A program made the position numbers and the translations under genes. The notes under the pieces are model-generated. The model was not told the origin of the DNA. It made no database searches and saw nothing but the letters and a program-made list of their open reading frames with translations. From Candidatus Nomurabacteria bacterium RIFCSPHIGHO2_12_FULL_42_19 (GTDB taxonomy: Bacteria > Patescibacteriota > Minisyncoccia > Phycocordibacterales > UBA9973): 60,303 bases of DNA. Shown in pieces: positions 152 to 60,303 of this stretch (position 1 is its first letter; every line of letters starts with the position of its first letter). The stretch covers positions 3,923 through 64,225 of the forward strand of contig MFUM01000002.1 in NCBI GenBank assembly GCA_001786955.1. Reading direction: 5' to 3'.

Positions 152-180
152 TTGACATTTTGAGATAAGTGTGATATACT
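152..180 (+). promoter_or_regulatory. Sigma70-type promoter TTGACA-N17-TATACT for the GC-rich lipoprotein gene
   Basis: TTGACA at 152..157, TATACT at 175..180 preceded by TGa; lies in an AT-rich patch between GC-rich blocks. Confidence 0.6.
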
Positions 181-233
181 ATATGCGAGTTTGTGTGTGC
201 GCGTTCATGGTGAACGAGGCGCATTTGAAAGGG

Positions 234-1025
234 ATGAAGATGCAGAAAATCGTGCGACTGATGATGGTGTTGGCAGTTCTCGGGTTGGTGGCCGCGTGCG
301 CCACCGAGACGTCGACCAAGCCGCAGGAGCAGACCGCGCCGACTGCGCAAACGGCTCCCGCTCCCGAAGCGCCCGCAGCCAAGCCGAGCGGCTCGACCGA
401 GGCGGACTTCATCCGCGCCGGCATCGAGGCCGAGCTCCGCATGCGCGAGCTCGAGAAGAAGCTCACGCCGGACGAGAAGCGCCGCAATTACGACATCCGC
501 AAGGCCGTGCTCGACGTCGCGGTGACCGATTACACCGGCGCGAACAAGGAATTGCCCGAATGGGTGCGCGCCGCTTACGACGCCTACGAGACCGAGGACT
601 ACACCAAGGGCCACGTCGCCTTCCAGCGCTCATTCGGGTGGGGAACGGGCACGTTCCAAGGCAAGCCGTTCTATTGGTTTGCCTTCACGAACACCGACGC
701 CTGGATGCAGTTCGGTTTCTCGGTGAAGCTCGATGGCAACACCAAGAAGGTGGCGCTGAGTCGGAAGGACGGATTTGGCCACGAGTGGGAGGTGGAATTG
801 AATTCGGATCCCACGAAGGGCTACGGTGTCCCCGCAGCGACCTGGATGGGAGTCACGAACGATTGGATCGAACGTGACTGCACCAAGCCGAGGGGTGAAG
901 CCTGCGACATCGGCAGTGCGCTCGACCGCGCCGTCGCCGAGATGAACTCGGCGCTTGGGCTCAAGATGACAGTGAAGGGGAAGTTCCCGTGGGAACCTCT
1001 CCTTATACCTTACGTCGAGAAGTAA
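234..1025 (+). CDS. GC-rich predicted lipoprotein, function unknown (foreign composition)
   Basis: ORF 171..1025. Internal ATG 234 (or 240, with AAAGGG 6 nt upstream) gives MKMQKIVRLMMVLAVLGLVAAC, a signal peptide plus lipobox Cys. Followed by a Pro/Ala/Thr-rich linker. GC-rich third codon positions. Confidence 0.7.
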   Translation: MKMQKIVRLMMVLAVLGLVAACATETSTKPQEQTAPTAQTAPAPEAPAAKPSGSTEADFIRAGIEAELRMRELEKKLTPDEKRRNYDIRKAVLDVAVTDYTGANKELPEWVRAAYDAYETEDYTKGHVAFQRSFGWGTGTFQGKPFYWFAFTNTDAWMQFGFSVKLDGNTKKVALSRKDGFGHEWEVELNSDPTKGYGVPAATWMGVTNDWIERDCTKPRGEACDIGSALDRAVAEMNSALGLKMTVKGKFPWEPLLIPYVEK

Positions 1026-2283: not shown

Positions 2284-2547
2284 ATGAAAGAAGGAGGCCG
2301 CGAGCGGCCGGATGAAGCTAAAGAAGCATTATTCGTTAAATTGGCAAAAGAGCTGGAAGTTAAACCCGCGTCGTTTTTAGCGGCTGACCCCGATTTACGC
2401 AGATCGTTAACAATTGCAAAACTTATCATAATTCGTCTTTTTCCTCCTATTCCTCTAGAACTAGAAGCCAAAATGCGTAGAATTTGGTTTGCCGGTCTTG
2501 ATGCGGGAGTATTGAAACCCGAAGACGAGAAAGATATATTTAGCTAA
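2284..2547 (+). CDS. Hypothetical small protein (87 aa)
   Basis: ORF 2245..2547. ATG 2284 is chosen because it sits at the recurrent -10 plus 6 nt distance. No recognisable domain. Confidence 0.4.
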   Translation: MKEGGRERPDEAKEALFVKLAKELEVKPASFLAADPDLRRSLTIAKLIIIRLFPPIPLELEAKMRRIWFAGLDAGVLKPEDEKDIFS

Positions 2548-2553
2548 TTTCCT

Positions 2554-2602
2554 AAAAAATTAGAAAGCACCGGTAGGAACGTGGTGTTTCTCTGTCCGGT
2601 GC
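2554..2602 (-). terminator. Terminator of the GC-rich 83-aa ORF
   Basis: On the minus strand: GCACCGG, 22 nt, CCGGTGC, then TTTCTAATTTTTT. A second GC hairpin GGCGGGGGC/GCCCCCGCC lies at 2623..2649. Confidence 0.5.
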
Positions 2603-2665
2603 GATTCGCACTGTCTTCTTTAGGCGGGGGCGCGCGCGATGCCCCCGCCGGGTTTGCCCCCATGT

Positions 2666-2917
2666 TCATGTAATCCAGAACACGAAGGGGAGGTCTGTGT
2701 CCTGTCGGGCTGTCCTGCCCTGCAGAGCAACGGTAGCTGCCAGGGTAGTCTGGAGCGTATTGTCGGCGAACTTGAGGTTTTCGGGTACTACGAACGACCC
2801 GACAAACTTCGTTCGCGAGGGTTCGTCTTCGAACATGAAAACGCGCCCTTTGGTCACTTTCCCGTTCGAGAGGACCTCGAACGAGATTTTCTGTCCGGCT
2901 TCGAATTTCCAATTCAT
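2666..2917 (-). CDS. GC-rich hypothetical protein (83 aa), function unknown
   Basis: GGAGG at 2925..2929, exactly 7 nt before the ATG. GC-rich third positions. The other ORFs overlapping this block lack start signals. Confidence 0.6.
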   Translation of the reverse strand: MNWKFEAGQKISFEVLSNGKVTKGRVFMFEDEPSRTKFVGSFVVPENLKFADNTLQTTLAATVALQGRTARQDTDLPFVFWIT

Positions 2918-2964
2918 GGGGATGCCTCCATCGGGCTTGAAAGCCCGAAAAACTGTTCACTTTT

Positions 2965-2992
2965 AGTATGTATCAAAAACCCGCCCTGTCAA
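2965..2992 (-). promoter_or_regulatory. Sigma70-type promoter TTGACA-N16-CATACT for the 83-aa GC-rich ORF
   Basis: The minus strand reads TTGACA (2992..2987), 16 nt, CATACT (2970..2965). Confidence 0.55.
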
Positions 2993-3029
2993 CAGGTTTA
3001 TTTCCCCAAGTGATGCTTCAGGGTATAAA

Positions 3030-51879: not shown

Positions 51880-53367
51880 ATGTCCAAAACAAATAAACAA
51901 AAAAATTATATGTCTAAAAACTTGGGCCAGGGACTGACTTTTGACGATATATTGCTCGTGCCGGATTATAGCGAGGTTCTACCCAAAAATGTAATAACCA
52001 AAACAAAGCTAACAAAAAACATAAATCTTCATATCCCATTCATGTCCGCGGCCATGGATACGGTTACCGAATCCAAAATGGCGATAGCTATGGCGGAGCA
52101 GGGAGGCATCGGCATTATCCATAAAAATCTTTCAATTGCCGACCAGGCGCGGGAAGTGGAAAAAGTCAAAAGATATGAAGCAGGCCGGATTACCAATCCG
52201 GTCACGCTTCCTATTGATGCGACGGTAGGCGACGTATTTGCTATACAAAAAAAATATCATTTCGGCGGATTTCCGGTCCTGGATAAAAACGGCTTTTTGG
52301 CAGGGATTATCACCAACCGCGACCTTCGCTTCCAAAAAGACGAATCTACCCCGATAAAAAAAATAATGACTACCAAATTGATAACCGGCGGGCCAGATAC
52401 AAGCATAGAAGAGGCGAATAATTTATTCAACAAGCATGCTATAGAAAAACTTCCATTAGTCGATAAAAATAATAAATTAGTCGGGCTGATTACTTATCGG
52501 GATATAGCTAAGTCAAAAGAATACCCGAACGCAACCAAAGATAAATTAGGCCGGCTCTGCGTTGGAGCGGCTGTCGGCACGGGAGCCGACGCTCTTCTGC
52601 AAGTGGAAGCATTGGTCAAAGCCGATGTTGATGTAATTTGCGTAGATACCGCTCATGGACATTCAAAAGGCGTACTTGATGTAGTCCAAAAAATCCGCAG
52701 GTCATATCCGAAACTTGATATTATTGCCGGTAATGTTGCGACAGAAGAAGCGGCATTGGCATTAATAAAAGCCGGGGCAAATGCCGTCAAGGTCGGCATT
52801 GGTCCGGGTTCAATCTGCACGACACGCATCGTTTCCGGCGTCGGTGTGCCGCAGCTTTCGGCTATTTCTGCAGTTTATCAAGCATGCAAGAAATTTAATA
52901 TTCCGGTCATCGCCGACGGAGGCGTCAAGCATAGCGGCGACGCAGTCAAGGCTTTGGCTTTCGGCGCCGATGTAATCATGTCCGGGTCTATGTTTGCCGG
53001 CACGGACGAATCCCCGGGAGACACTATCGCAATAAATGACCAAAAATTCAAGAAATACCGAGGCATGGGCTCGCTCGGCGCAATGCAAAGAGGCTCCAAA
53101 GACCGTTATTTCCAGGATGACCAATATGATTTGACGAAACTGGTTCCGGAGGGCGTTTCCGGACATGTTTCTTATAAAGGCGCGCTGTCCGAAATCATCC
53201 ATCAATATGTCGGAGGGCTTCGCGCGGGTATGGGCTATCTGGGAGCGGAAAATATTTCAAAACTGCGGAATGCTTCCTATTACACCATTACCTCAGCCGG
53301 ATTAAACGAAAGCCACGTCCATGATATTTTTATGGTCAGTCCGGCGCCGAATTACAAAAAAAGATGA
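51880..53367 (+). CDS. guaB: IMP dehydrogenase
   Basis: [10 protein letters not shown], tandem CBS domains, catalytic [19 protein letters not shown]. Confidence 0.95.
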
Positions 53368-54767
53368 CAAGAAAGAACGTAAGAAAAAATAAATCTAAAA
53401 TTACTCCTATTATCGGCTTGCAATGGGGAGATGAGGGAAAAGGAAAGGGCGTTGCCCGCATTGCGTCTAATTTATCCAAGAATGATTTGATTGTCAGGTT
53501 CCAGGGCGGAAACAATGCCGGGCATACCATCTGGCATGCCGGCAAGTGTTATGTGTTTAAATTAATTCCGTCGGGAATTTTCGGCCAGGCGCAAATACAT
53601 TTGGGCGCCGGTATGGTCATTAACCCGGGAGCATTTTTACAGGAAACCGGAACAATACCGAAATATGTTTCTTTTTTGGACAGGATGTCTGTTTCTCCGC
53701 ATGCCATTTTGACAATGCCCACGCATATTCTGCTTGATTCAATTTCCGAAAAACAAAAAGGCGGGAAGAAAATAGGTTCTACCGGCAGGGGAATCTCGCC
53801 CTCTTATACCGACCTTACTTTGCGAAGGGCGCTCCGGGTCGGGGATATTTTCCAAAATGATTTCAAAAAAAGATACGCCGCGCTCAGCCGAGAGCATAAA
53901 AAAACTCTGCTGAATGTTTTTAAATACAAAGCCAAAGATAAAGAATTGAGAGAATCCGAGAAGAATTTTTTCCAGGGCGTTGAATTTTTGCGCTCGCTTC
54001 GTGTCATCCAATCGGCGGAAATCGTGGAGGCTGCGCTCTCCGGCGGGCATAAGGTCATTGCCGAAGGAGCGCAAGGGACACTGCTGGATGTCCGTTTCGG
54101 GAATTACCCTTTCGTGACTTCCTCGCACACTATAGCGAGCGGAGTCGGCACCGGGCTCGGCCTCCCGCCTTCCCTTATTGGGCCTTCCATCGGCGTTTTA
54201 AAGGCCTATACGACCAAGGTTGGAGAGGGGCCTTTCCCGACGGAGCTCGGCGGAATAAAATCCGCCATTTGGTGCCGGGATGAAAAATCCGCTTATGAAA
54301 AAGAAAAATTCCCGGAACCCGATTTAAACAGCCAAGATGAATTCGAGCAGGGCGTTGCGCTGCGAAAGGCGGGTAGCGAATTCGGCGCCGTGACCGGACG
54401 CTTGCGCCGGACCGGCTGGCTGGATATCCCGCTGGTAAAATACGCGATAAAAATAAACAATTCGGCGGAACTGATATTGACCAAGTTGGATGTATTGAAC
54501 GGCTTTAAGAAAATAAAAATTTGCACGCATTATTTTATCAACGGCCACCGAACACAAAAAACTCCATTTGATCTATCCCGGGCAAAAATAAAATGCGTCT
54601 ATAAAAATTTTCCTGTTTGGAAAGAAGAGTTGTCCGACTATGGTAAAAAATTGCCGAAAGAAGCTCTAAACTATGTAAAATTCCTGGAAAAAGAGCTTGG
54701 TGCCAAGATTATATATGTCGGCACCGGCCCGGAAGAGCATCATGTCGTGGAACGTTATTGGAGATAG
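53364..54767 (+). CDS. purA: Adenylosuccinate synthetase
   Basis: GLQWGDEGKGK, GGNNAGHT, STGRGI, TGRLRRTGWLD. Confidence 0.93.
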   Translation: MTRKNVRKNKSKITPIIGLQWGDEGKGKGVARIASNLSKNDLIVRFQGGNNAGHTIWHAGKCYVFKLIPSGIFGQAQIHLGAGMVINPGAFLQETGTIPKYVSFLDRMSVSPHAILTMPTHILLDSISEKQKGGKKIGSTGRGISPSYTDLTLRRALRVGDIFQNDFKKRYAALSREHKKTLLNVFKYKAKDKELRESEKNFFQGVEFLRSLRVIQSAEIVEAALSGGHKVIAEGAQGTLLDVRFGNYPFVTSSHTIASGVGTGLGLPPSLIGPSIGVLKAYTTKVGEGPFPTELGGIKSAIWCRDEKSAYEKEKFPEPDLNSQDEFEQGVALRKAGSEFGAVTGRLRRTGWLDIPLVKYAIKINNSAELILTKLDVLNGFKKIKICTHYFINGHRTQKTPFDLSRAKIKCVYKNFPVWKEELSDYGKKLPKEALNYVKFLEKELGAKIIYVGTGPEEHHVVERYWR

Positions 54768-55288
54768 GACTCCAAATTTTGTCCGGTGTAAAGGATTGTT
54801 TTTAAATTAGGGTATTTTTTAAAATCCAGGTCTTTAAAATTTTCCGCCTTATCATCAATGAAAAACACCTTTTCGTCCTTGTGTTTGGTGCAGATTTTTT
54901 CCACCATTTTCTTTTTACTTTCCTGCACCACAATAATTTCGGAAAATAATGAAGCGACGCCGGTCCTTTTAATTTTATCTAGCTGAAATTCAGTATCACC
55001 GTAACTGATTATGTAACAGTTTGATTTTCCTAACTTTTTTATCTCTTTGAGTAATTCCTCATTATTGAAAGTCTCTATTTCACGCATCATTTCTTCGTAG
55101 TAATCTTCCTTAAGAGAAAAATGAGCTAATAATTTTTTCATTGAAAAAAGCTCCCCACGTACCTTTTGGTAATACTCATCTATGTCATGAGTTGATATTC
55201 CGGCTTTTTTCAACCTGGGGTACATATGTTCATACCGACGTCTACCGGTTTGAAACAAAACATCATCAAAATCAAAAATGTATTTCAT
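54755..55288 (-). CDS. HAD-superfamily hydrolase
   Basis: N-terminal DxD motif in FDFDDVLF; FIDDK near the C-terminus. Confidence 0.7.
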   Translation of the reverse strand: MKYIFDFDDVLFQTGRRRYEHMYPRLKKAGISTHDIDEYYQKVRGELFSMKKLLAHFSLKEDYYEEMMREIETFNNEELLKEIKKLGKSNCYIISYGDTEFQLDKIKRTGVASLFSEIIVVQESKKKMVEKICTKHKDEKVFFIDDKAENFKDLDFKKYPNLKTILYTGQNLESYLQ

Positions 55289-55306
55289 ATTGTTCCGTTG
55301 AAAATT

Positions 55307-56281
55307 TTAATTAATAATTTTTTTCAGGCAATTGGCTAATTTTTCCGAATCGTGACGAATAAAACCCCGCAAATTCGGGGATTTGTCTCCTATTATGGCC
55401 TGAGGCATGACATGAGACAGTAAAGCGTCCCTGATGACGCGGTTATCCTTGAAATCATCTTCCACCAGCACGCCGTCGCCTTCTGATAATTTATAGCGCT
55501 CTATCTGTTCAGCAGACGGTTTTTCATTATTAACCAAAATAATATCAATTAATTTCCCGAGATATTTTTCCACGTTGTTCACATAACTGCTGACTTTCCA
55601 ATGAGTAGTATGGCCTAATTTATTGGTAAGGTTAACCGGCAATATAATTTTTGCCTTGCTTTCTATGATCGCTTCCTTAAAACCGCTCACGATGAGGTTG
55701 GGAACAATTGAACAATAATAATTCCCAGGGCCGAGGATAATGTAATCCGCTTTTAATATCGCTTTTTCCGCGTTTTCATTCAGCCTCACGTCATTTTTAT
55801 AAAAAATATCTTTTATGCCGGCATCCTGCAAGTTGGCATCCTGAATTTTATTTTCGCCTTCCAATATCTTTCCATCTGACAGCGTTATGGATAATTCCGC
55901 CTTATTACCCGTTATAGGTATGACATTTCCATTGACTTTCAGAATCTCCGACGCAATTTCCACTCCTTTTCCAAAATCACCGGTGACTTTTTCCAAAGCC
56001 GCCAAAAATATATTGCCGAAATTATGCCCTTTTAAAGTTCCTTCGTTAAACCGGTAATTCATAAGCTTGCGCACGATATCGCTGTGCTCGCTTAAAGCGA
56101 CTAGGCACTGCCTGACATCTCCGGGAGGTAATACACCTAGTTCGTCTCTCAATACTCCCGTGGATCCGCCGTTATCTGACATAGAAACCAGCGCGGTCAA
56201 AGAAACATCCGGAAGATTTTTCAACCCAGAAAGCACGGTATAGCTGCCTGTCCCTCCGCCAATTGTAACAATATTTTTCAT
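55307..56281 (-). CDS. yvcK: YvcK/CofD-family gluconeogenesis factor
   Basis: TIGGGTGSYTVLSGLK, SDNGGSTGVLRDE, PPGDVRQCL. Start refined to ATG 56281 (TGcTATACT at 56296..56288 lies 6 nt upstream); the ORF track uses TTG 56287. Confidence 0.85.
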   Translation of the reverse strand: MKNIVTIGGGTGSYTVLSGLKNLPDVSLTALVSMSDNGGSTGVLRDELGVLPPGDVRQCLVALSEHSDIVRKLMNYRFNEGTLKGHNFGNIFLAALEKVTGDFGKGVEIASEILKVNGNVIPITGNKAELSITLSDGKILEGENKIQDANLQDAGIKDIFYKNDVRLNENAEKAILKADYIILGPGNYYCSIVPNLIVSGFKEAIIESKAKIILPVNLTNKLGHTTHWKVSSYVNNVEKYLGKLIDIILVNNEKPSAEQIERYKLSEGDGVLVEDDFKDNRVIRDALLSHVMPQAIIGDKSPNLRGFIRHDSEKLANCLKKIIN

Positions 56282-56355
56282 AATCAAAGTATAGCAAAAT
56301 TTTCAAATTTGTCTTTAGTTTTTATTTTATATAGAATAGTACAAGTAAAATATTT

Positions 56356-57171
56356 ATGTTATTAAAAAAGACGACAAAACAGGAAATATTGAGCATTTCT
56401 CATTATAATATTCTAAACGGCGGCGAAGGAAGGCTAAATGATATCCTGAAAGTAATAAAAGGGATTAATCCTGACATCTGTGGGCTTCTTGAGGCGGTAA
56501 AATGGCAAAATAAATCGGGACGTTTCCGAAAAATCGCGAACAATCTAGGGTATAAATTTGTCCATCTTGCTGTGGCAAACTCAAAATATAATATCGCCGT
56601 ATTTTCAAAATTACCGATTGGGGTTAAAGTCATCAAAAAAGGAATCAGGCACGTTGCTCTAGAGGCAACCGTGAAAAGCGGCCCATTTAAAAGATTGAGC
56701 ATTTTTTTTATTCATCTCTCCCCGGCATCGGAAGATGCCCGGCTTCTGGAAATAAAAGAACTGCTGAAACACGCCCAAAAATTATCTCAGGCTGTAATTA
56801 TGGGAGATTTAAATTCGTTGTCATGTCGCGACCCGTATAACCGGAGAAAAATTCTGAAAGCGTTCCAAAAAAATAGTGTCACGAAATACGGAACTCGTAA
56901 ACTGCGTTTTGATGTTATAAAAAAATTGAATTCGGCGGGGTTTAAAGACGCCATGTTTTATCTGAAGCGCTCTTTTGCCGCGTCTACTCCCACTCCGTCA
57001 AACAAAGACGTTAGCCACTCGGCCAGTGTCAGAATTGACTACGCTTTTCTTTCAAAAAACATCCTTAAATACTTAAAAGAGGCCAAGGTTTTCAAAAATC
57101 GCGCCGCCGACAAAGCATCCGACCATTATCCTATGTATATAAAGCTCATAAAAAACGAAAGGGGGTCGTGA
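56356..57171 (+). CDS. Endonuclease/exonuclease/phosphatase (EEP) family protein
   Basis: YNILNGG, GDLNS, SDHYP. The last codons run into the terminator stem of the convergent GC-rich gene. Confidence 0.75.
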   Translation: MLLKKTTKQEILSISHYNILNGGEGRLNDILKVIKGINPDICGLLEAVKWQNKSGRFRKIANNLGYKFVHLAVANSKYNIAVFSKLPIGVKVIKKGIRHVALEATVKSGPFKRLSIFFIHLSPASEDARLLEIKELLKHAQKLSQAVIMGDLNSLSCRDPYNRRKILKAFQKNSVTKYGTRKLRFDVIKKLNSAGFKDAMFYLKRSFAASTPTPSNKDVSHSASVRIDYAFLSKNILKYLKEAKVFKNRAADKASDHYPMYIKLIKNERGS

Positions 57172-57188
57172 CTTGCGTCCGTACCCCC
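57150..57188 (-). terminator. Terminator of the GC-rich kinase-like ORF
   Basis: On the minus strand: GGGGGT, 16 nt, ACCCCC, then TTTCGTTTTTT. Confidence 0.6.
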
Positions 57189-57199
57189 ATTCCTCTTGA

Positions 57200-58069
57200 T
57201 CACTTTCCGGCGAACAAGTCGCGGATGCGGCTCACTCGCTCCTCATCAGTAATTTTAAGAGGACAAAAATTACTGCTGAGGTCAAAAATCTGCGAGAAGT
57301 ATTTCATTCTCGCCCCGCTCTGCGGTGGCATGAACCGCAAGGCGAGTTCACGGATAGCGTCCGGGTCCTCCAAGTCGAGCTTGGCAAGCGCGACCTGGAT
57401 GTCCTGGTTGTCGGGAAGCGTCCGGAAGTAGCCTTGAACTTTCTGTCCGAACGCTTCTCCCATCACGCTTTCAACCGCCTTGAGGATGTCAGCTTCGCTG
57501 ACGCCGGCATCCTGAGCGAGAATGCTGAAACGAAGCCGTCGCAAGACGCCGAGCGGGTCGAATTTGCGGCGAAGTTCCTGTTCCACTACCTCCGCCTCGG
57601 TCGGGTTCGGGAAGTGTACAATGAACTCGTCCTCGTACTTCACGAGAGGAGGGAAAGTGTCCACGTAGTACACTCTCCCGTCCGGCCCCAGGCAGAAATT
57701 CGACAGGCGGGCATCAATGCCAACCTCCCGCCCTGTCTGGGACAAGATTCCTCTCATGGTAGAGACGAGGCTCCTTAGGGTTTCGGCTCCGGCCTCGTCC
57801 TTTCGGAAAACTTCGTCGAGATCCCTTCCCACGTAAGGAGAACACTGTATTGCCTTCCCCCCCCTTACGGCGAACGTGTACGGCTCCGCAAGCTGGACTC
57901 CGAGCTCCCGGAGTTTACTGCGGAAATATACACTGGTCTCGTTGACCCAGTGCGCGTTTTCCGAATTCACTTTCTCCGGGCAAATCTCCTTCTCAACAAT
58001 GACCCCACGGCCATTGTTAATGCAGGAGACCAGGGCGTACCTGGACTTTCTCTGCCATACAATGGCCAT
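57200..58069 (-). CDS. GC-rich protein with a protein-kinase-like (PKL) catalytic signature, function unknown
   Basis: GAAAGGA at 58077..58083, 7 nt before the ATG. IDARLSNFCL (D-x4-N) followed by YYVDTF (metal-binding Asp), as in small-molecule/atypical kinases. Confidence 0.55.
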   Translation of the reverse strand: MAIVWQRKSRYALVSCINNGRGVIVEKEICPEKVNSENAHWVNETSVYFRSKLRELGVQLAEPYTFAVRGGKAIQCSPYVGRDLDEVFRKDEAGAETLRSLVSTMRGILSQTGREVGIDARLSNFCLGPDGRVYYVDTFPPLVKYEDEFIVHFPNPTEAEVVEQELRRKFDPLGVLRRLRFSILAQDAGVSEADILKAVESVMGEAFGQKVQGYFRTLPDNQDIQVALAKLDLEDPDAIRELALRFMPPQSGARMKYFSQIFDLSSNFCPLKITDEERVSRIRDLFAGK

Positions 58070-58108
58070 GATAATATCCTTTCTGGGTGGAACAACATGT
58101 TCAAAAAG

Positions 58109-58136
58109 AGTATGGTCTAAATCTTTATTTTGTCAA
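58109..58136 (-). promoter_or_regulatory. Sigma70-type promoter TTGACA-N16-CATACT for the kinase-like ORF
   Basis: The minus strand reads TTGACA (58136..58131), 16 nt, CATACT (58114..58109). Confidence 0.55.
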
Positions 58137-58180
58137 TGAATATATTTGTTTTTAAGGCTAAAATATATTAATATGTCAAT

Positions 58181-60303
58181 ATGATTTCACGGATATATGT
58201 GACGCCTAAGGGAAAAGCCGATTTTATCAACTCTTACCTAATTTCGCATAAGTTTTCCAATGACAAAATCCTCAAAATAGCTCGGGTTTTGACTAACCCC
58301 ATCCTGGAGGAATTCTCCATAAATAAATTTCCCAAAGTCAGGCATTTTTATTTCGCTATTGAAATCGGCTTTTTGCCGGGGGTGACGGACAATGTCGCTC
58401 ATACCGTCCAGGAAACCATAATAGATTTGCTGCATATTAAAAAGAAATCTGATTTCGAAGTTTACACTTCAAAAATTTTTTTAATTTATAATTCAACCAA
58501 TCTGGATGACGCAAAAAAAAATGCTTTTTCGCTTCATAATCCCTTAATAGAAAGGGCGCGAATCGCAAGTTTTAAGGAAATAAAGAAAAAAAAAGGTTTG
58601 CCTTTGAAGGTCCCGAAAGTAATTCTAAGGAAAACCGCTTCAGTTATTGAAGTTCCACTTTCAAGCGCCGCGGATGAAGAGCTCCAAAAGATTGGAAAAG
58701 AAGGCATAATGGGCGAAAATGGTGTGCGCCGCGGGCCCTTGGCTCTTGATTTGGCGTCAATGAAAACAATCCGGGAATATTTTAGAAAATTACCTGTCCG
58801 CGCAGGCGGGAAAAGAAATCCAACCGATATCGAGCTTGAGTCGCTTGCGCAGACCTGGTCCGAGCATTGTAAACACACTATTTTTGCCAATCCGATTGAC
58901 GACATTCAGGACGGTTTATATAAAACATATATAAAAGGAGCAACAAATTTAATACGAAAGAAAAAAGGGAAAAATGATTTTTGTGTTTCTGTTTTCAAGG
59001 ATAATTCCGGCGGTATAGTTTTTGATAAAGATTATTTGATAACGCATAAAGTGGAAACACACAACGCTCCTTCTTCTTTGGACCCTTTCGGCGGGGCTAT
59101 TACAGGTATTGTCGGGGTAAATCGCGATGCTATCGGTTTCGGACTGGGCGCCAAGCCGATAGCGAATACTTACGGATTTTGTTTTGGCGAACCAAACGAT
59201 AAACGGCTGCTCTTCTTGGATAAAGAAAGAAAACAAAAAATGCTTTTACCGGAGCGGGTTATGCAGGGCGTAATAAAGGGTATAAATGTCGGGGGAAATT
59301 GCTCTGGTATTCCCACTATTTCCGGATTTATAAAATTTGATGACCGGTACAGAGGCAGGCCACTGGTATATGCCGGTACCGTGGGGTTAATTCCACGAAA
59401 AATAAAAAACAGGCTTTCGCATGAGAAAAAAGCTCAAGCTGGTGATTATATTGTAATGGTTGGTGGCAGAGTGGGGCTGGACGGAATCCATGGCGCGACG
59501 TTTTCTTCGGTCGCTATGGATTCCAATTCTCCGGCTACCGCGGTACAAATCGGGGACCCAATTACGCAAAAAAAATTAAGTGATGCAATAGTTAAAGAAG
59601 CGCGGGATATGAATTTATACAACAGCATTACCGACAACGGCGCAGGCGGTTTATCCTGTTCGGTGGCAGAAATGGCCAAAGAGTGCGGCGGCGCGGAAGT
59701 GGAACTTCAGAAAGTGCCGTTGAAATATCTGGGTCTTCGTCCTTGGGAAATTTGGATTTCCGAATCACAGGAACGCATGACGCTCTCGGTGCCAAAGGGT
59801 AAATGGAAGGCATTTCAAAAACTGATGGAGGCTCGGGGAGTGGAAGCAACGGTAATAGGAAAATTTATTAAAAGTCCTCGTTGTATCGTAAAATATCACG
59901 GCAAAAAAATTATGGACATTGATATGGAATTTCTGCATAACGGACTGCCGAAACATCATTTAGTTACATCTCCATTTATTCAAAACCACCCTGAACCCAA
60001 AATTGAAAATAAAAAATATTACACCAAAGATTTGGAAAATCTACTTGGTACTAAAAACGTTTCTGGATTTTCTTTTATTTCCCAACAATATGACCACGAG
60101 GTGCAGGCATCTTCCGTCTTAAAGCCTCTCTCCGGACGGGGCCAAACAAACACCGATGCGCAAGTTTTTAAACCGGTTTTGAGTTCCGATAAGGGAGTCG
60201 TATTGTCTTCCAGCACTTATCCTTCATATGGAGATATCAGCGCTTATCATATGGCTGCCTGCGCTATCGATACGGTAATCAGAAATGTAATATCGGCGGG
60301 CGG
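58181..60303 (+). CDS. purL: Phosphoribosylformylglycinamidine synthase PurL with an N-terminal extension; 3' end cut by the window
   Basis: Manual translation from ATG 58181 stays open to the window end: NPTDIELESLAQTWSEHCKHTIF, KVETHNAPSSLDPFGGAITG, GDPITQKK, ITDNGAGGLS. Absent from the ORF track because there is no stop. Confidence 0.9.
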   Translation, partial: MISRIYVTPKGKADFINSYLISHKFSNDKILKIARVLTNPILEEFSINKFPKVRHFYFAIEIGFLPGVTDNVAHTVQETIIDLLHIKKKSDFEVYTSKIFLIYNSTNLDDAKKNAFSLHNPLIERARIASFKEIKKKKGLPLKVPKVILRKTASVIEVPLSSAADEELQKIGKEGIMGENGVRRGPLALDLASMKTIREYFRKLPVRAGGKRNPTDIELESLAQTWSEHCKHTIFANPIDDIQDGLYKTYIKGATNLIRKKKGKNDFCVSVFKDNSGGIVFDKDYLITHKVETHNAPSSLDPFGGAITGIVGVNRDAIGFGLGAKPIANTYGFCFGEPNDKRLLFLDKERKQKMLLPERVMQGVIKGINVGGNCSGIPTISGFIKFDDRYRGRPLVYAGTVGLIPRKIKNRLSHEKKAQAGDYIVMVGGRVGLDGIHGATFSSVAMDSNSPATAVQIGDPITQKKLSDAIVKEARDMNLYNSITDNGAGGLSCSVAEMAKECGGAEVELQKVPLKYLGLRPWEIWISESQERMTLSVPKGKWKAFQKLMEARGVEATVIGKFIKSPRCIVKYHGKKIMDIDMEFLHNGLPKHHLVTSPFIQNHPEPKIENKKYYTKDLENLLGTKNVSGFSFISQQYDHEVQASSVLKPLSGRGQTNTDAQVFKPVLSSDKGVVLSSSTYPSYGDISAYHMAACAIDTVIRNVISAG
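58792..58816. repeat. Repeat family E copy 2 (inside purL)
   Basis: ACCTGTCCGCGCAGGCGGGAAAAGA, encoding PVRAGGK just before the conserved RNPTDIEL block. Confidence 0.8.

Follow-up and report, generated by a model that had tools for sequence, protein, structure and literature searches.

A probable protein-kinase-like enzyme and its conserved EEP-fold phosphoesterase partner in Candidate Phyla Radiation bacteria

Many bacterial families with the protein-kinase-like (PKL) fold are small-molecule kinases, and the superfamily takes in the APH/ChoK type (aminoglycoside kinases, NahK, AmgK and fructosamine-3-kinase) and the Kdo/WaaP kinases as well as the Hanks Ser/Thr protein kinases, among them TTK/Mps1, Snf1, p38 and PrkC/PknB. 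A different association of a kinase with a second activity is seen in the end-healing enzymes T4 Pnkp, CthPnkp of Clostridium, HD-Pnk and the kinase-CPD part of Trl1, which pair one kinase with phosphoesterases of exchangeable fold. Protein phosphorylation also bears on the supply of UDP-N-acetylglucosamine (UDP-GlcNAc) in Firmicutes through the PrkC/PrpC-GlmR(YvcK)-GlmS control system; in Bacillus subtilis, PrkC phosphorylates GlmR at T304 and PrpC reverses this (PMC13046274). Here we set against these systems a gene that we call KIN, which lies beside a gene for an EEP-fold phosphoesterase (hereafter EEP) in a 60,303-nt stretch of DNA, contig MFUM01000002.1, positions 3,923-64,225 of the forward strand. 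This whole stretch is referred to as the window, and feature positions are given in its coordinates. KIN and EEP form an ancient, co-inherited two-gene module, and we are fairly confident that KIN has kinase activity of the PKL type and is linked in function to EEP. What is new here is the orphan family itself, its EEP partner and a persistent compositional anomaly of the kinase-like gene.

The GC-rich open reading frame (ORF) of KIN contains both of the peptides that an initial annotation of the window had quoted for its kinase-like reading, GRGVIVEKE at residues 20-28 and GREVGIDARLSNFCLGPDGRVYYVDTFPP at residues 113-141, and its ATG start is backed by the aligned N-termini of homologs. An AlphaFold2 model built on 37 homologs (pLDDT 94, pTM 0.91) is predicted to consist of 3 N-terminal strands, a helix, 2 further strands, the catalytic-loop region and an all-helical C-terminal half. 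Searched with Foldseek, this model matches, with a probability of 1.0, several hundred kinase structures from the PDB and from BFVD, a library of viral structures. There are 727 PDB matches at E ≤ 1e-3, of which the top 50 are all protein kinases (p38, ERK, CDK2, EphA3, IRAK4), and the only named matches in the top 50 from BFVD that are not protein kinases are a nucleotidyl-transferase-domain protein and the pp1a polyprotein of a nidovirus.

Sequence profiles lead to the same superfamily. Searches of NCBIfam and single-sequence searches of the PDB with KIN gave nothing useful, and a narrow family profile (A1) gave chance matches only against the PDB, but a broader profile of 86 diverse relatives (A3) matched TTK/Mps1 with an E-value of 1.2e-4 and Snf1 with 8e-4. 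In the profile alignment VvK, which contains K27 of KIN, falls on the beta3 Lys, the consensus GiDpkpsNF falls on HSDLKPANF of the HRD-type catalytic loop, and YvDf falls on DFG. This places the KIN catalytic loop at D119-A-R121-L-S-N124 and the DFG-like metal-binding Asp at D137, in D137-T-F, and it bears out the earlier suggestion that the Lys of GRGVIVEKE is the Lys of the nucleotide-binding strand. All four of these residues (K27, D119, N124 and D137) are invariant in the 37 close homologs; across the 86-sequence distant set D137 is still invariant and K27, D119 and N124 are each at least 90% conserved. Other invariant positions are H152, P154, P156, R168, K169, R177, R178, R180 and R240, in the C-lobe. 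Because fold, motif alignment and conservation agree, we take the residue assignment of the initial annotation to be right and KIN to be probably a catalytically active PKL enzyme.

The kind of kinase is another matter, since the aminoglycoside, Kdo and fructosamine types that had been proposed did not hold up. None of the 86 family members matches APH (PF01636), ChoK (PF01633), FN3K (PF03881) or Kdo/WaaP (PF06293) at E ≤ 1, there was no match of this type in NCBIfam, and an hhalign comparison of KIN with the NahK-like APH protein encoded beside it in some lineages reached a probability of 7.8% over 20 columns. KIN belongs to the same superfamily as the APH/ChoK and Kdo/WaaP enzymes and shares their Lys...D-x4-N...D arrangement, but it has no profile similarity to them, and its catalytic loop carries the basic residue of eukaryotic-type protein kinases (ePKs): a Lys or Arg two residues past the catalytic Asp is an ePK pattern and not one of APH, ChoK or RIO. 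The sequence and fold matches of KIN are accordingly with eukaryotic-type Ser/Thr kinases. Its sole Pfam match is DUF6206 (PF19709), at 23 bits over residues 101-146 against a cut-off of 30.4 bits. The same model matches 62 of the 86 relatives around the catalytic loop and DFG (best E 2.7e-8), and the best relative checked reaches 28.4 bits; since these scores are below the cut-off, we regard the KIN family as a group related to DUF6206 and not as a member of it. No mention of DUF6206/PF19709 was found in the literature searched. The KIN family is uncharacterised, with a fold and chemistry of a known kind, and the family itself is new.

The association with EEP is a nearly constant feature of this family. 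When 46 loci and the window were pooled into 27 lineages, within each of which KIN is at least 90% identical, an EEP homolog was present no more than 2 kb from KIN in 22 of the 27. In 15 of these the two genes converge, at a distance of 18-84 nt, and in the other 7 they run in the same direction. The stop codons of the two genes are 28 nt apart in the window. Three of the other 5 lineages are truncated, so that only L021 and L043 are without EEP despite enough flanking sequence. In all of the contexts read at the outset, which range in identity from 99% to 31%, KIN adjoins an EEP gene and it is the outer neighbors that vary; the distant member P0114 likewise has KIN followed by EEP, and the pair is kept in lineages down to approximately 25-30% identity. 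The two genes have diverged together, the pairwise identities of KIN and EEP in ten lineages correlating with a Spearman rho of 0.79, and KIN is better conserved than EEP (74% versus 61% in one comparison). A word-indexed search for EEP homologs returned a similarly small family, many of its contigs being equal in length to those that carry KIN. From this adjacency and co-divergence across lineages it follows that EEP is the partner of KIN and that the pair is old. The genomes of Candidate Phyla Radiation (CPR) bacteria, or Patescibacteria, are tiny, and because they keep the pair across lineages at 25-30% identity, it is likely to matter for CPR biology.

EEP itself has a complete and invariant catalytic set (N18, E46, H120, D151, N153, D228, D256 and H257). 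The best Foldseek matches of its model (pLDDT 95.5) are L1 endonuclease, Escherichia coli ExoIII (TM 0.72), APE1, the Neisseria 3'-phosphatase NExo and Crc. Against the ExoIII equivalog TIGR00195 it scores 38.9 bits where the cut-off is 182.55, and EEP is not an ExoIII ortholog. The two products differ greatly in charge. EEP has a pI of 10.2, a net charge of about +32 and 13.7% Lys (family median pI 9.7), and KIN is acidic, with a pI of 5.7 (family median 5.65); amino-acid usage is split in the same way, KIN being Arg-rich and EEP Lys-rich. This contrast, read from the sequences, points to binding of polyanions (nucleic acids), to a complex of KIN with EEP, or to both. Neither protein has an obvious N-terminal signal peptide by eye.

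Beyond EEP, the surroundings of KIN are rich in genes for amino-sugar-nucleotide metabolism. UDP-GlcNAc genes lie beside the pair in at least 7 lineages, the recurrent ones being those for GlmS, GlmM, a GlmU N-terminal-type uridylyltransferase, YvcK/GlmR, HAD and GNAT proteins. EEP, YvcK and HAD genes stand in a row in the window, and lineage L009 has the co-directional row TrmB-KIN-EEP-GlmU_N-GlmS-HAD-YvcK-GNAT. A TrmB-type regulator neighbors KIN-EEP in 6 lineages, and the NahK-like APH gene does so in 5, its product matching N-acetylhexosamine 1-kinase structures over its full length (PDB 4ocu, E 1.5e-19). A PP2C phosphatase gene, weakly Stp1/IreP-like, adjoins in L008, and the KIN and PP2C frames overlap in L020 and L044 (stop-to-stop ORF coordinates). 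In P0067 (L023, 8001-9773) the two are joined in a natural fusion, with a PP2C/SpoIIE-type domain at the N-terminus and the kinase-like domain at the C-terminus, flanked by a NahK-like APH gene and a convergent EEP gene. Overlapping frames and a fusion suggest coupled expression of KIN and PP2C. This neighborhood of amino-sugar-nucleotide genes, PP2C and a NahK-like kinase is non-random, and the place of KIN-EEP within it offers an entry point to the regulation or salvage of envelope and nucleotide building blocks in the host-dependent CPR.

The lineages without EEP are informative about what may take its place. In L021 (8897-9799, minus strand) it is replaced by a convergent, overlapping PHP gene resembling 3',5'-nucleoside bisphosphate phosphatase/RNase RNM (RNase AM), and L043 has GlpX and two nucleotidyltransferases as neighbors. 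In the distant L048 (5209-6498) the kinase-like gene is followed by 2H (RNA 2',3'-cyclic phosphodiesterase-like) and HD genes, with HIT and NUDIX genes nearby. Guanylate-kinase-like, NUDIX and purine genes are found near KIN in several loci. A link to the glmS ribozyme, which on cleavage produces 5'-OH and cyclic-phosphate ends, was also considered and dropped, because neither the window nor any of six other loci, GlmS-bearing or related, gave a match to this ribozyme.

Our best explanation, which we hold tentatively and at somewhat less than even confidence, is that KIN is a regulatory Ser/Thr-type protein kinase with EEP as its target or effector. KIN would then be a cytoplasmic atypical PKL phosphotransferase, one half of a two-gene module with EEP, that would use ATP-Mg through K27, D119, N124 and D137. 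Its target would be EEP and/or the enzymes that supply amino-sugar nucleotides (cell-wall precursors), in analogy to the way PrkC/PrpC act on GlmR, and PP2C, where present, would reverse the phosphorylation. We lean this way because the catalytic loop is ePK-like and the matches are to protein kinases only, because PP2C is fused to KIN or shares overlapping frames with it, because a NahK-like enzyme already fills the role of sugar kinase in the module, and because PrkC/PrpC provide a precedent, in Firmicutes, for control of GlmR and UDP-GlcNAc supply. An adjacent or fused PP2C in some lineages is a likeness to PrkC/PrpC, and a kinase, PP2C, YvcK/GlmR, GlmS, GlmM and GlmU-like genes occur together around KIN, a further likeness to the Firmicutes system, although KIN is no homolog of PrkC in the family sense and the resemblance is an analogy of gene neighborhoods only. 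The opposite charges of KIN and EEP are compatible with a complex of the two.

A good deal weighs against a protein kinase of the ordinary sort. KIN resembles the Hanks kinases in its bilobal fold, in the aligned Lys, D-x-[K/R]-x-x-N and DFG-like Asp, and in the roughly 20 residues that separate DFG from the first helix of the C-lobe. However, Pfam Pkinase (PF00069) matches 0 of the 86 members at E ≤ 1, the GxGxxG loop is absent (the G-loop position reads KSRY), no APE motif is recognizable, and helix 39-55 has no conserved alphaC Glu, N43 being near-invariant there instead. The alphaC Glu is missing from many atypical kinases, and its loss does not exclude activity. The likeness to kinases at the sequence level ends at DFG, the C-lobe being unalignable by sequence, and TM-scores to protein kinases are just 0.3-0.45, so the substrate-binding lobe is novel; its invariant Arg/Lys cluster would also suit a small anionic or a nucleic-acid substrate. 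Unlike Hanks kinases such as PrkC, KIN has no PASTA or other sensor domains, and its obligate partner is EEP, a nuclease-like phosphoesterase of no known protein-phosphatase type. In the window lineage there is no PP2C gene in the 60 kb of the window. The replacement of EEP by PHP in L021 and by 2H/HD in L048 points rather to a pair of enzymes that act on one and the same nucleotide or nucleic acid.

KIN might instead be a small-molecule kinase of amino-sugar or sugar-phosphate metabolism, acting on sugars, amino sugars or sugar nucleotides so as to feed or regulate the synthesis of UDP-GlcNAc, with EEP as the opposing or next-step phosphoesterase. The invariant basic residues of the C-lobe would suit a phosphorylated ligand. 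We think this unlikely, though worth serious consideration. The recurrence beside the pair of GlmS, GlmM, the GlmU N-terminal domain, YvcK, HAD, GNAT and the sugar-type regulator TrmB, which L009 gathers in a single co-directional cluster, speaks for it, as does the abundance of small-molecule kinases among bacterial PKL families, but likeness to the APH, ChoK, FN3K and Kdo families is missing, and where the module is complete the role of anomeric GlcNAc kinase is already held by the NahK-like neighbor. The PP2C fusion is also hard to explain in this way, and an EEP that is nuclease-like and carries a charge of +32 is unexpected for a sugar phosphatase. The same properties of EEP, whose model is nearest to L1 endonuclease, ExoIII, APE1 and NExo, would fit a KIN that phosphorylates a hydroxyl of a nucleic acid or nucleotide (a 5'-OH end or a nucleoside), with EEP removing a 3'-phosphate or 2',3'-cyclic phosphate or trimming the end. 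The PHP gene of L021, the 2H and HD genes with HIT and NUDIX in L048, and the guanylate-kinase-like, NUDIX and purine genes near several loci agree with this, and like the end-healing enzymes KIN is tied to a 3'-end-type phosphoesterase of exchangeable fold (EEP, PHP, 2H/HD). Those enzymes, however, have P-loop kinases and are usually fused, where KIN has the PKL fold and is a separate and often convergent gene; we know of no description of a polynucleotide or nucleoside kinase with the PKL fold. KIN is an acidic protein, PHP and 2H were each seen only once in place of EEP, no ligase or RtcB-like gene was seen beside the pair, and PP2C, NahK and the UDP-GlcNAc neighborhood would be left unexplained, all of which makes this reading rather improbable. 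If it were nonetheless true, the pair would constitute a new, non-P-loop system of end healing or nucleotide salvage with interchangeable 3'-end phosphoesterases in the host-dependent CPR, to which the GC-rich coding sequence and intragenic hairpin of KIN (below) would add a regulatory layer.

The exchange of partners, taken together with a distant relative fused to a TIR domain that matches PADLOC models, could also be interpreted as a kinase-controlled stress or defense module, with KIN as the sensor or regulator of a potentially toxic effector, EEP, and effectors swapped between lineages (EEP, PHP, 2H/HD). An acidic protein beside a highly basic, nuclease-like one recalls inhibitor-nuclease pairs, and the genes are convergent with separate putative promoters. 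Defense systems are usually patchy and found in islands, though, whereas in most lineages this pair is vertically inherited in housekeeping surroundings that hold no integrases or repeats, and PADLOC matches neither KIN nor EEP, nor the PP2C-KIN fusion; we consider a defense role very unlikely. Least credible of all, and all but excluded, is what the initial annotation had proposed, a recently acquired cassette bearing a resistance-type or small-molecule kinase beside an unrelated native EEP gene. Composition is what speaks for it, with a GC content of 0.56 in KIN and GC at the first, second and third codon positions (GC1/2/3) of 0.60/0.39/0.69, compared with a median GC3 of 0.41 (sd 0.095) among the 61 larger ORFs of the window, only one other of which, 171..1025, exceeds a GC3 of 0.6; KIN also has promoter-like and terminator elements of its own. 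Against this stand the same KIN-EEP arrangement in relatives from 99% to approximately 25% identity, with co-divergence of the two genes, and the lack of any likeness to APH-type resistance kinases. A search for direct repeats as cassette borders around KIN gave short chance matches only, and no mobile-element or mobility genes flank it, the neighbors being FGAM synthase, YvcK, HAD and purA. The GC excess, too, is a property of the family and not of this locus.

The GC3 of KIN is higher than that of EEP in 22 of 22 pairs, by 0.21 on average. Of 32 distinct loci, 19 have a KIN whose GC content is more than 0.05 above that of the locus itself; lineages at approximately 30% identity (L009, L018, L041) are among them, whereas certain lineages of very high AT content (L005, L006) are not. 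EEP usually has a lower GC content than the locus in which it lies. Because KIN and EEP co-diverge and yet keep opposite biases, recent transfer does not explain the excess, and so strong a GC deviation in this gene does not mark recent horizontal transfer. Amino-acid composition alone was rejected as its cause, GC3 being the most deviant codon position. Part of the 3' region of KIN, encoding SSNF..KIT, can form an intragenic hairpin (Table 1) that recurs in a subgroup at 66-75% identity. In L001 the hairpin has a folding energy of -26.7 kcal/mol (z -5.5), and its pairing is kept by two changes that compensate each other, one of Asn to His and one of Ile to Met. RNAalifold yielded no consensus once lineages without the hairpin were included, for which reason pairs were counted directly: 82% of cells are paired, sliding the partners leaves 51% at most, and the covariation score was attained in none of 500 shuffles. 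The hairpin is absent in AT-rich lineages.

Table 1. Features at and around the KIN-EEP locus, in window coordinates
Feature	Position	Strand	Remarks
KIN, protein-kinase-like gene	57200..58069	-	289-aa ORF, read from sequence
Shine-Dalgarno-like GAAAGGA	58077..58083	-	7 nt before the KIN ATG; sequence reading
Promoter-like TTGACA-16-CATACT	58136..58109	-	pattern match only
Terminator-like hairpin of KIN	57161..57188	-	U-tract 57150-57160; computed fold
Intragenic hairpin in 3' part of KIN ORF	57241..57281	-	16-nt arms, 94% complementary
EEP-fold (ExoIII/APE1/L1-EN-like) phosphoesterase	56356..57171	+	271 aa; PF03372, E 6.5e-16; convergent with KIN
YvcK/GlmR-type UDP-GlcNAc-binding protein	55307..56287	-	TIGR01826, 285 bits; part of recurrent UDP-GlcNAc neighborhood
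HAD-type hydrolase	54755..55288	-	HAD also adjoins YvcK in the L009 cluster

The expression signals that the initial annotation had listed for KIN fared unevenly. The ribosome-binding sequence and its spacing to the ATG are present as described, and so is the terminator hairpin, with a computed energy of -24.9 kcal/mol (z -3.9) and its left arm within the last codons of the convergent EEP gene, whose stop occupies 57169-57171; the minus-strand sequence after the hairpin is UUUCGUUUUUU. The promoter hexamers are also where they were said to be, but a scan found 2 such promoter-like sites where 1.9 are expected in shuffled sequence, and since they are as frequent there, we treat the KIN promoter as a pattern and not as evidence. 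These hexamers sit in an AT-rich (GC 0.25) divergent intergenic region that KIN has in common with the FGAM synthase (purL-like) gene. The KIN gene was found in no RNA runs in a search of sequencing runs, and Rfam gave no match at 56000-58600 at E ≤ 1.

The junctions on either side of KIN, at about 57171 and 58140, which had been flagged for checking, are both genuine and are crossed by independent assemblies. A European Nucleotide Archive contig (L004) is collinear with window positions 52362-58350 at 99.47% identity without gaps, and a Logan contig assembled from a groundwater run is identical to the window over 56300-58261. The runs that carry sequence of the KIN region are groundwater and soil metagenomes. 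In one soil metagenome, run X5, the assembly graph branches at the terminator hairpin (window 57156-57188), and an alternative left flank of low depth, ATAATGGAAATAATTTAATATATAAAATAG, shows that a second strain, diverged on the EEP side, is present in the sample.

The family as a whole is rare. Word-indexed searches returned 66-77 KIN-family proteins, every one unnamed or annotated as "hypothetical protein," and an exhaustive hidden Markov model search of 1.84 billion cluster representatives found only 325 at E ≤ 1e-3. Where the source is labeled it is always CPR/Patescibacteria (Paceibacterota, Magasanikbacteria, Kerfeldbacteria and one contig labeled Saccharibacteria), the remainder being unclassified "bacterium." The TIR-bearing distant relative, P0185 (521 aa), carries its TIR domain after the kinase-like domain. 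The TIR domain matches PADLOC models of the TIR/ThsB type, and the architecture hints at defense-like settings for some distant relatives. On a Kerfeldbacteria contig (L011, 2151-7014) the kinase-like gene begins approximately 285 nt after a 23S-5S rRNA pair, and the 23S gene probably contains an insertion, since its match spans 3391 nt compared with a model of 2925 positions. A Paceibacterota-like contig (L006, 9010-10382) carries an RVT_1 reverse transcriptase next to a bAvd-like gene a few kb from the KIN-EEP pair, which together are the signature of a diversity-generating retroelement.

Two other GC-rich places in the window deserve mention. Positions 2544-3013 have a GC content of about 0.53-0.55 and hold overlapping ORFs, 2544..2960 on the minus strand and 2639..3013 on the plus strand, neither with a Pfam or NCBIfam match. 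The gene at 171-1025 on the plus strand, the only ORF besides KIN with a GC3 above 0.6 (0.82, at a GC content of 0.61), has no Pfam match and a lipoprotein-like N-terminus (MKMQKIVRLMMVLAVLGLVAAC). It is preceded by TTGACA...TATACT-like hexamers and followed, near 1095-1120, by a hairpin and T-run, and it is a separate "GC-rich cassette" that could be a true foreign gene.

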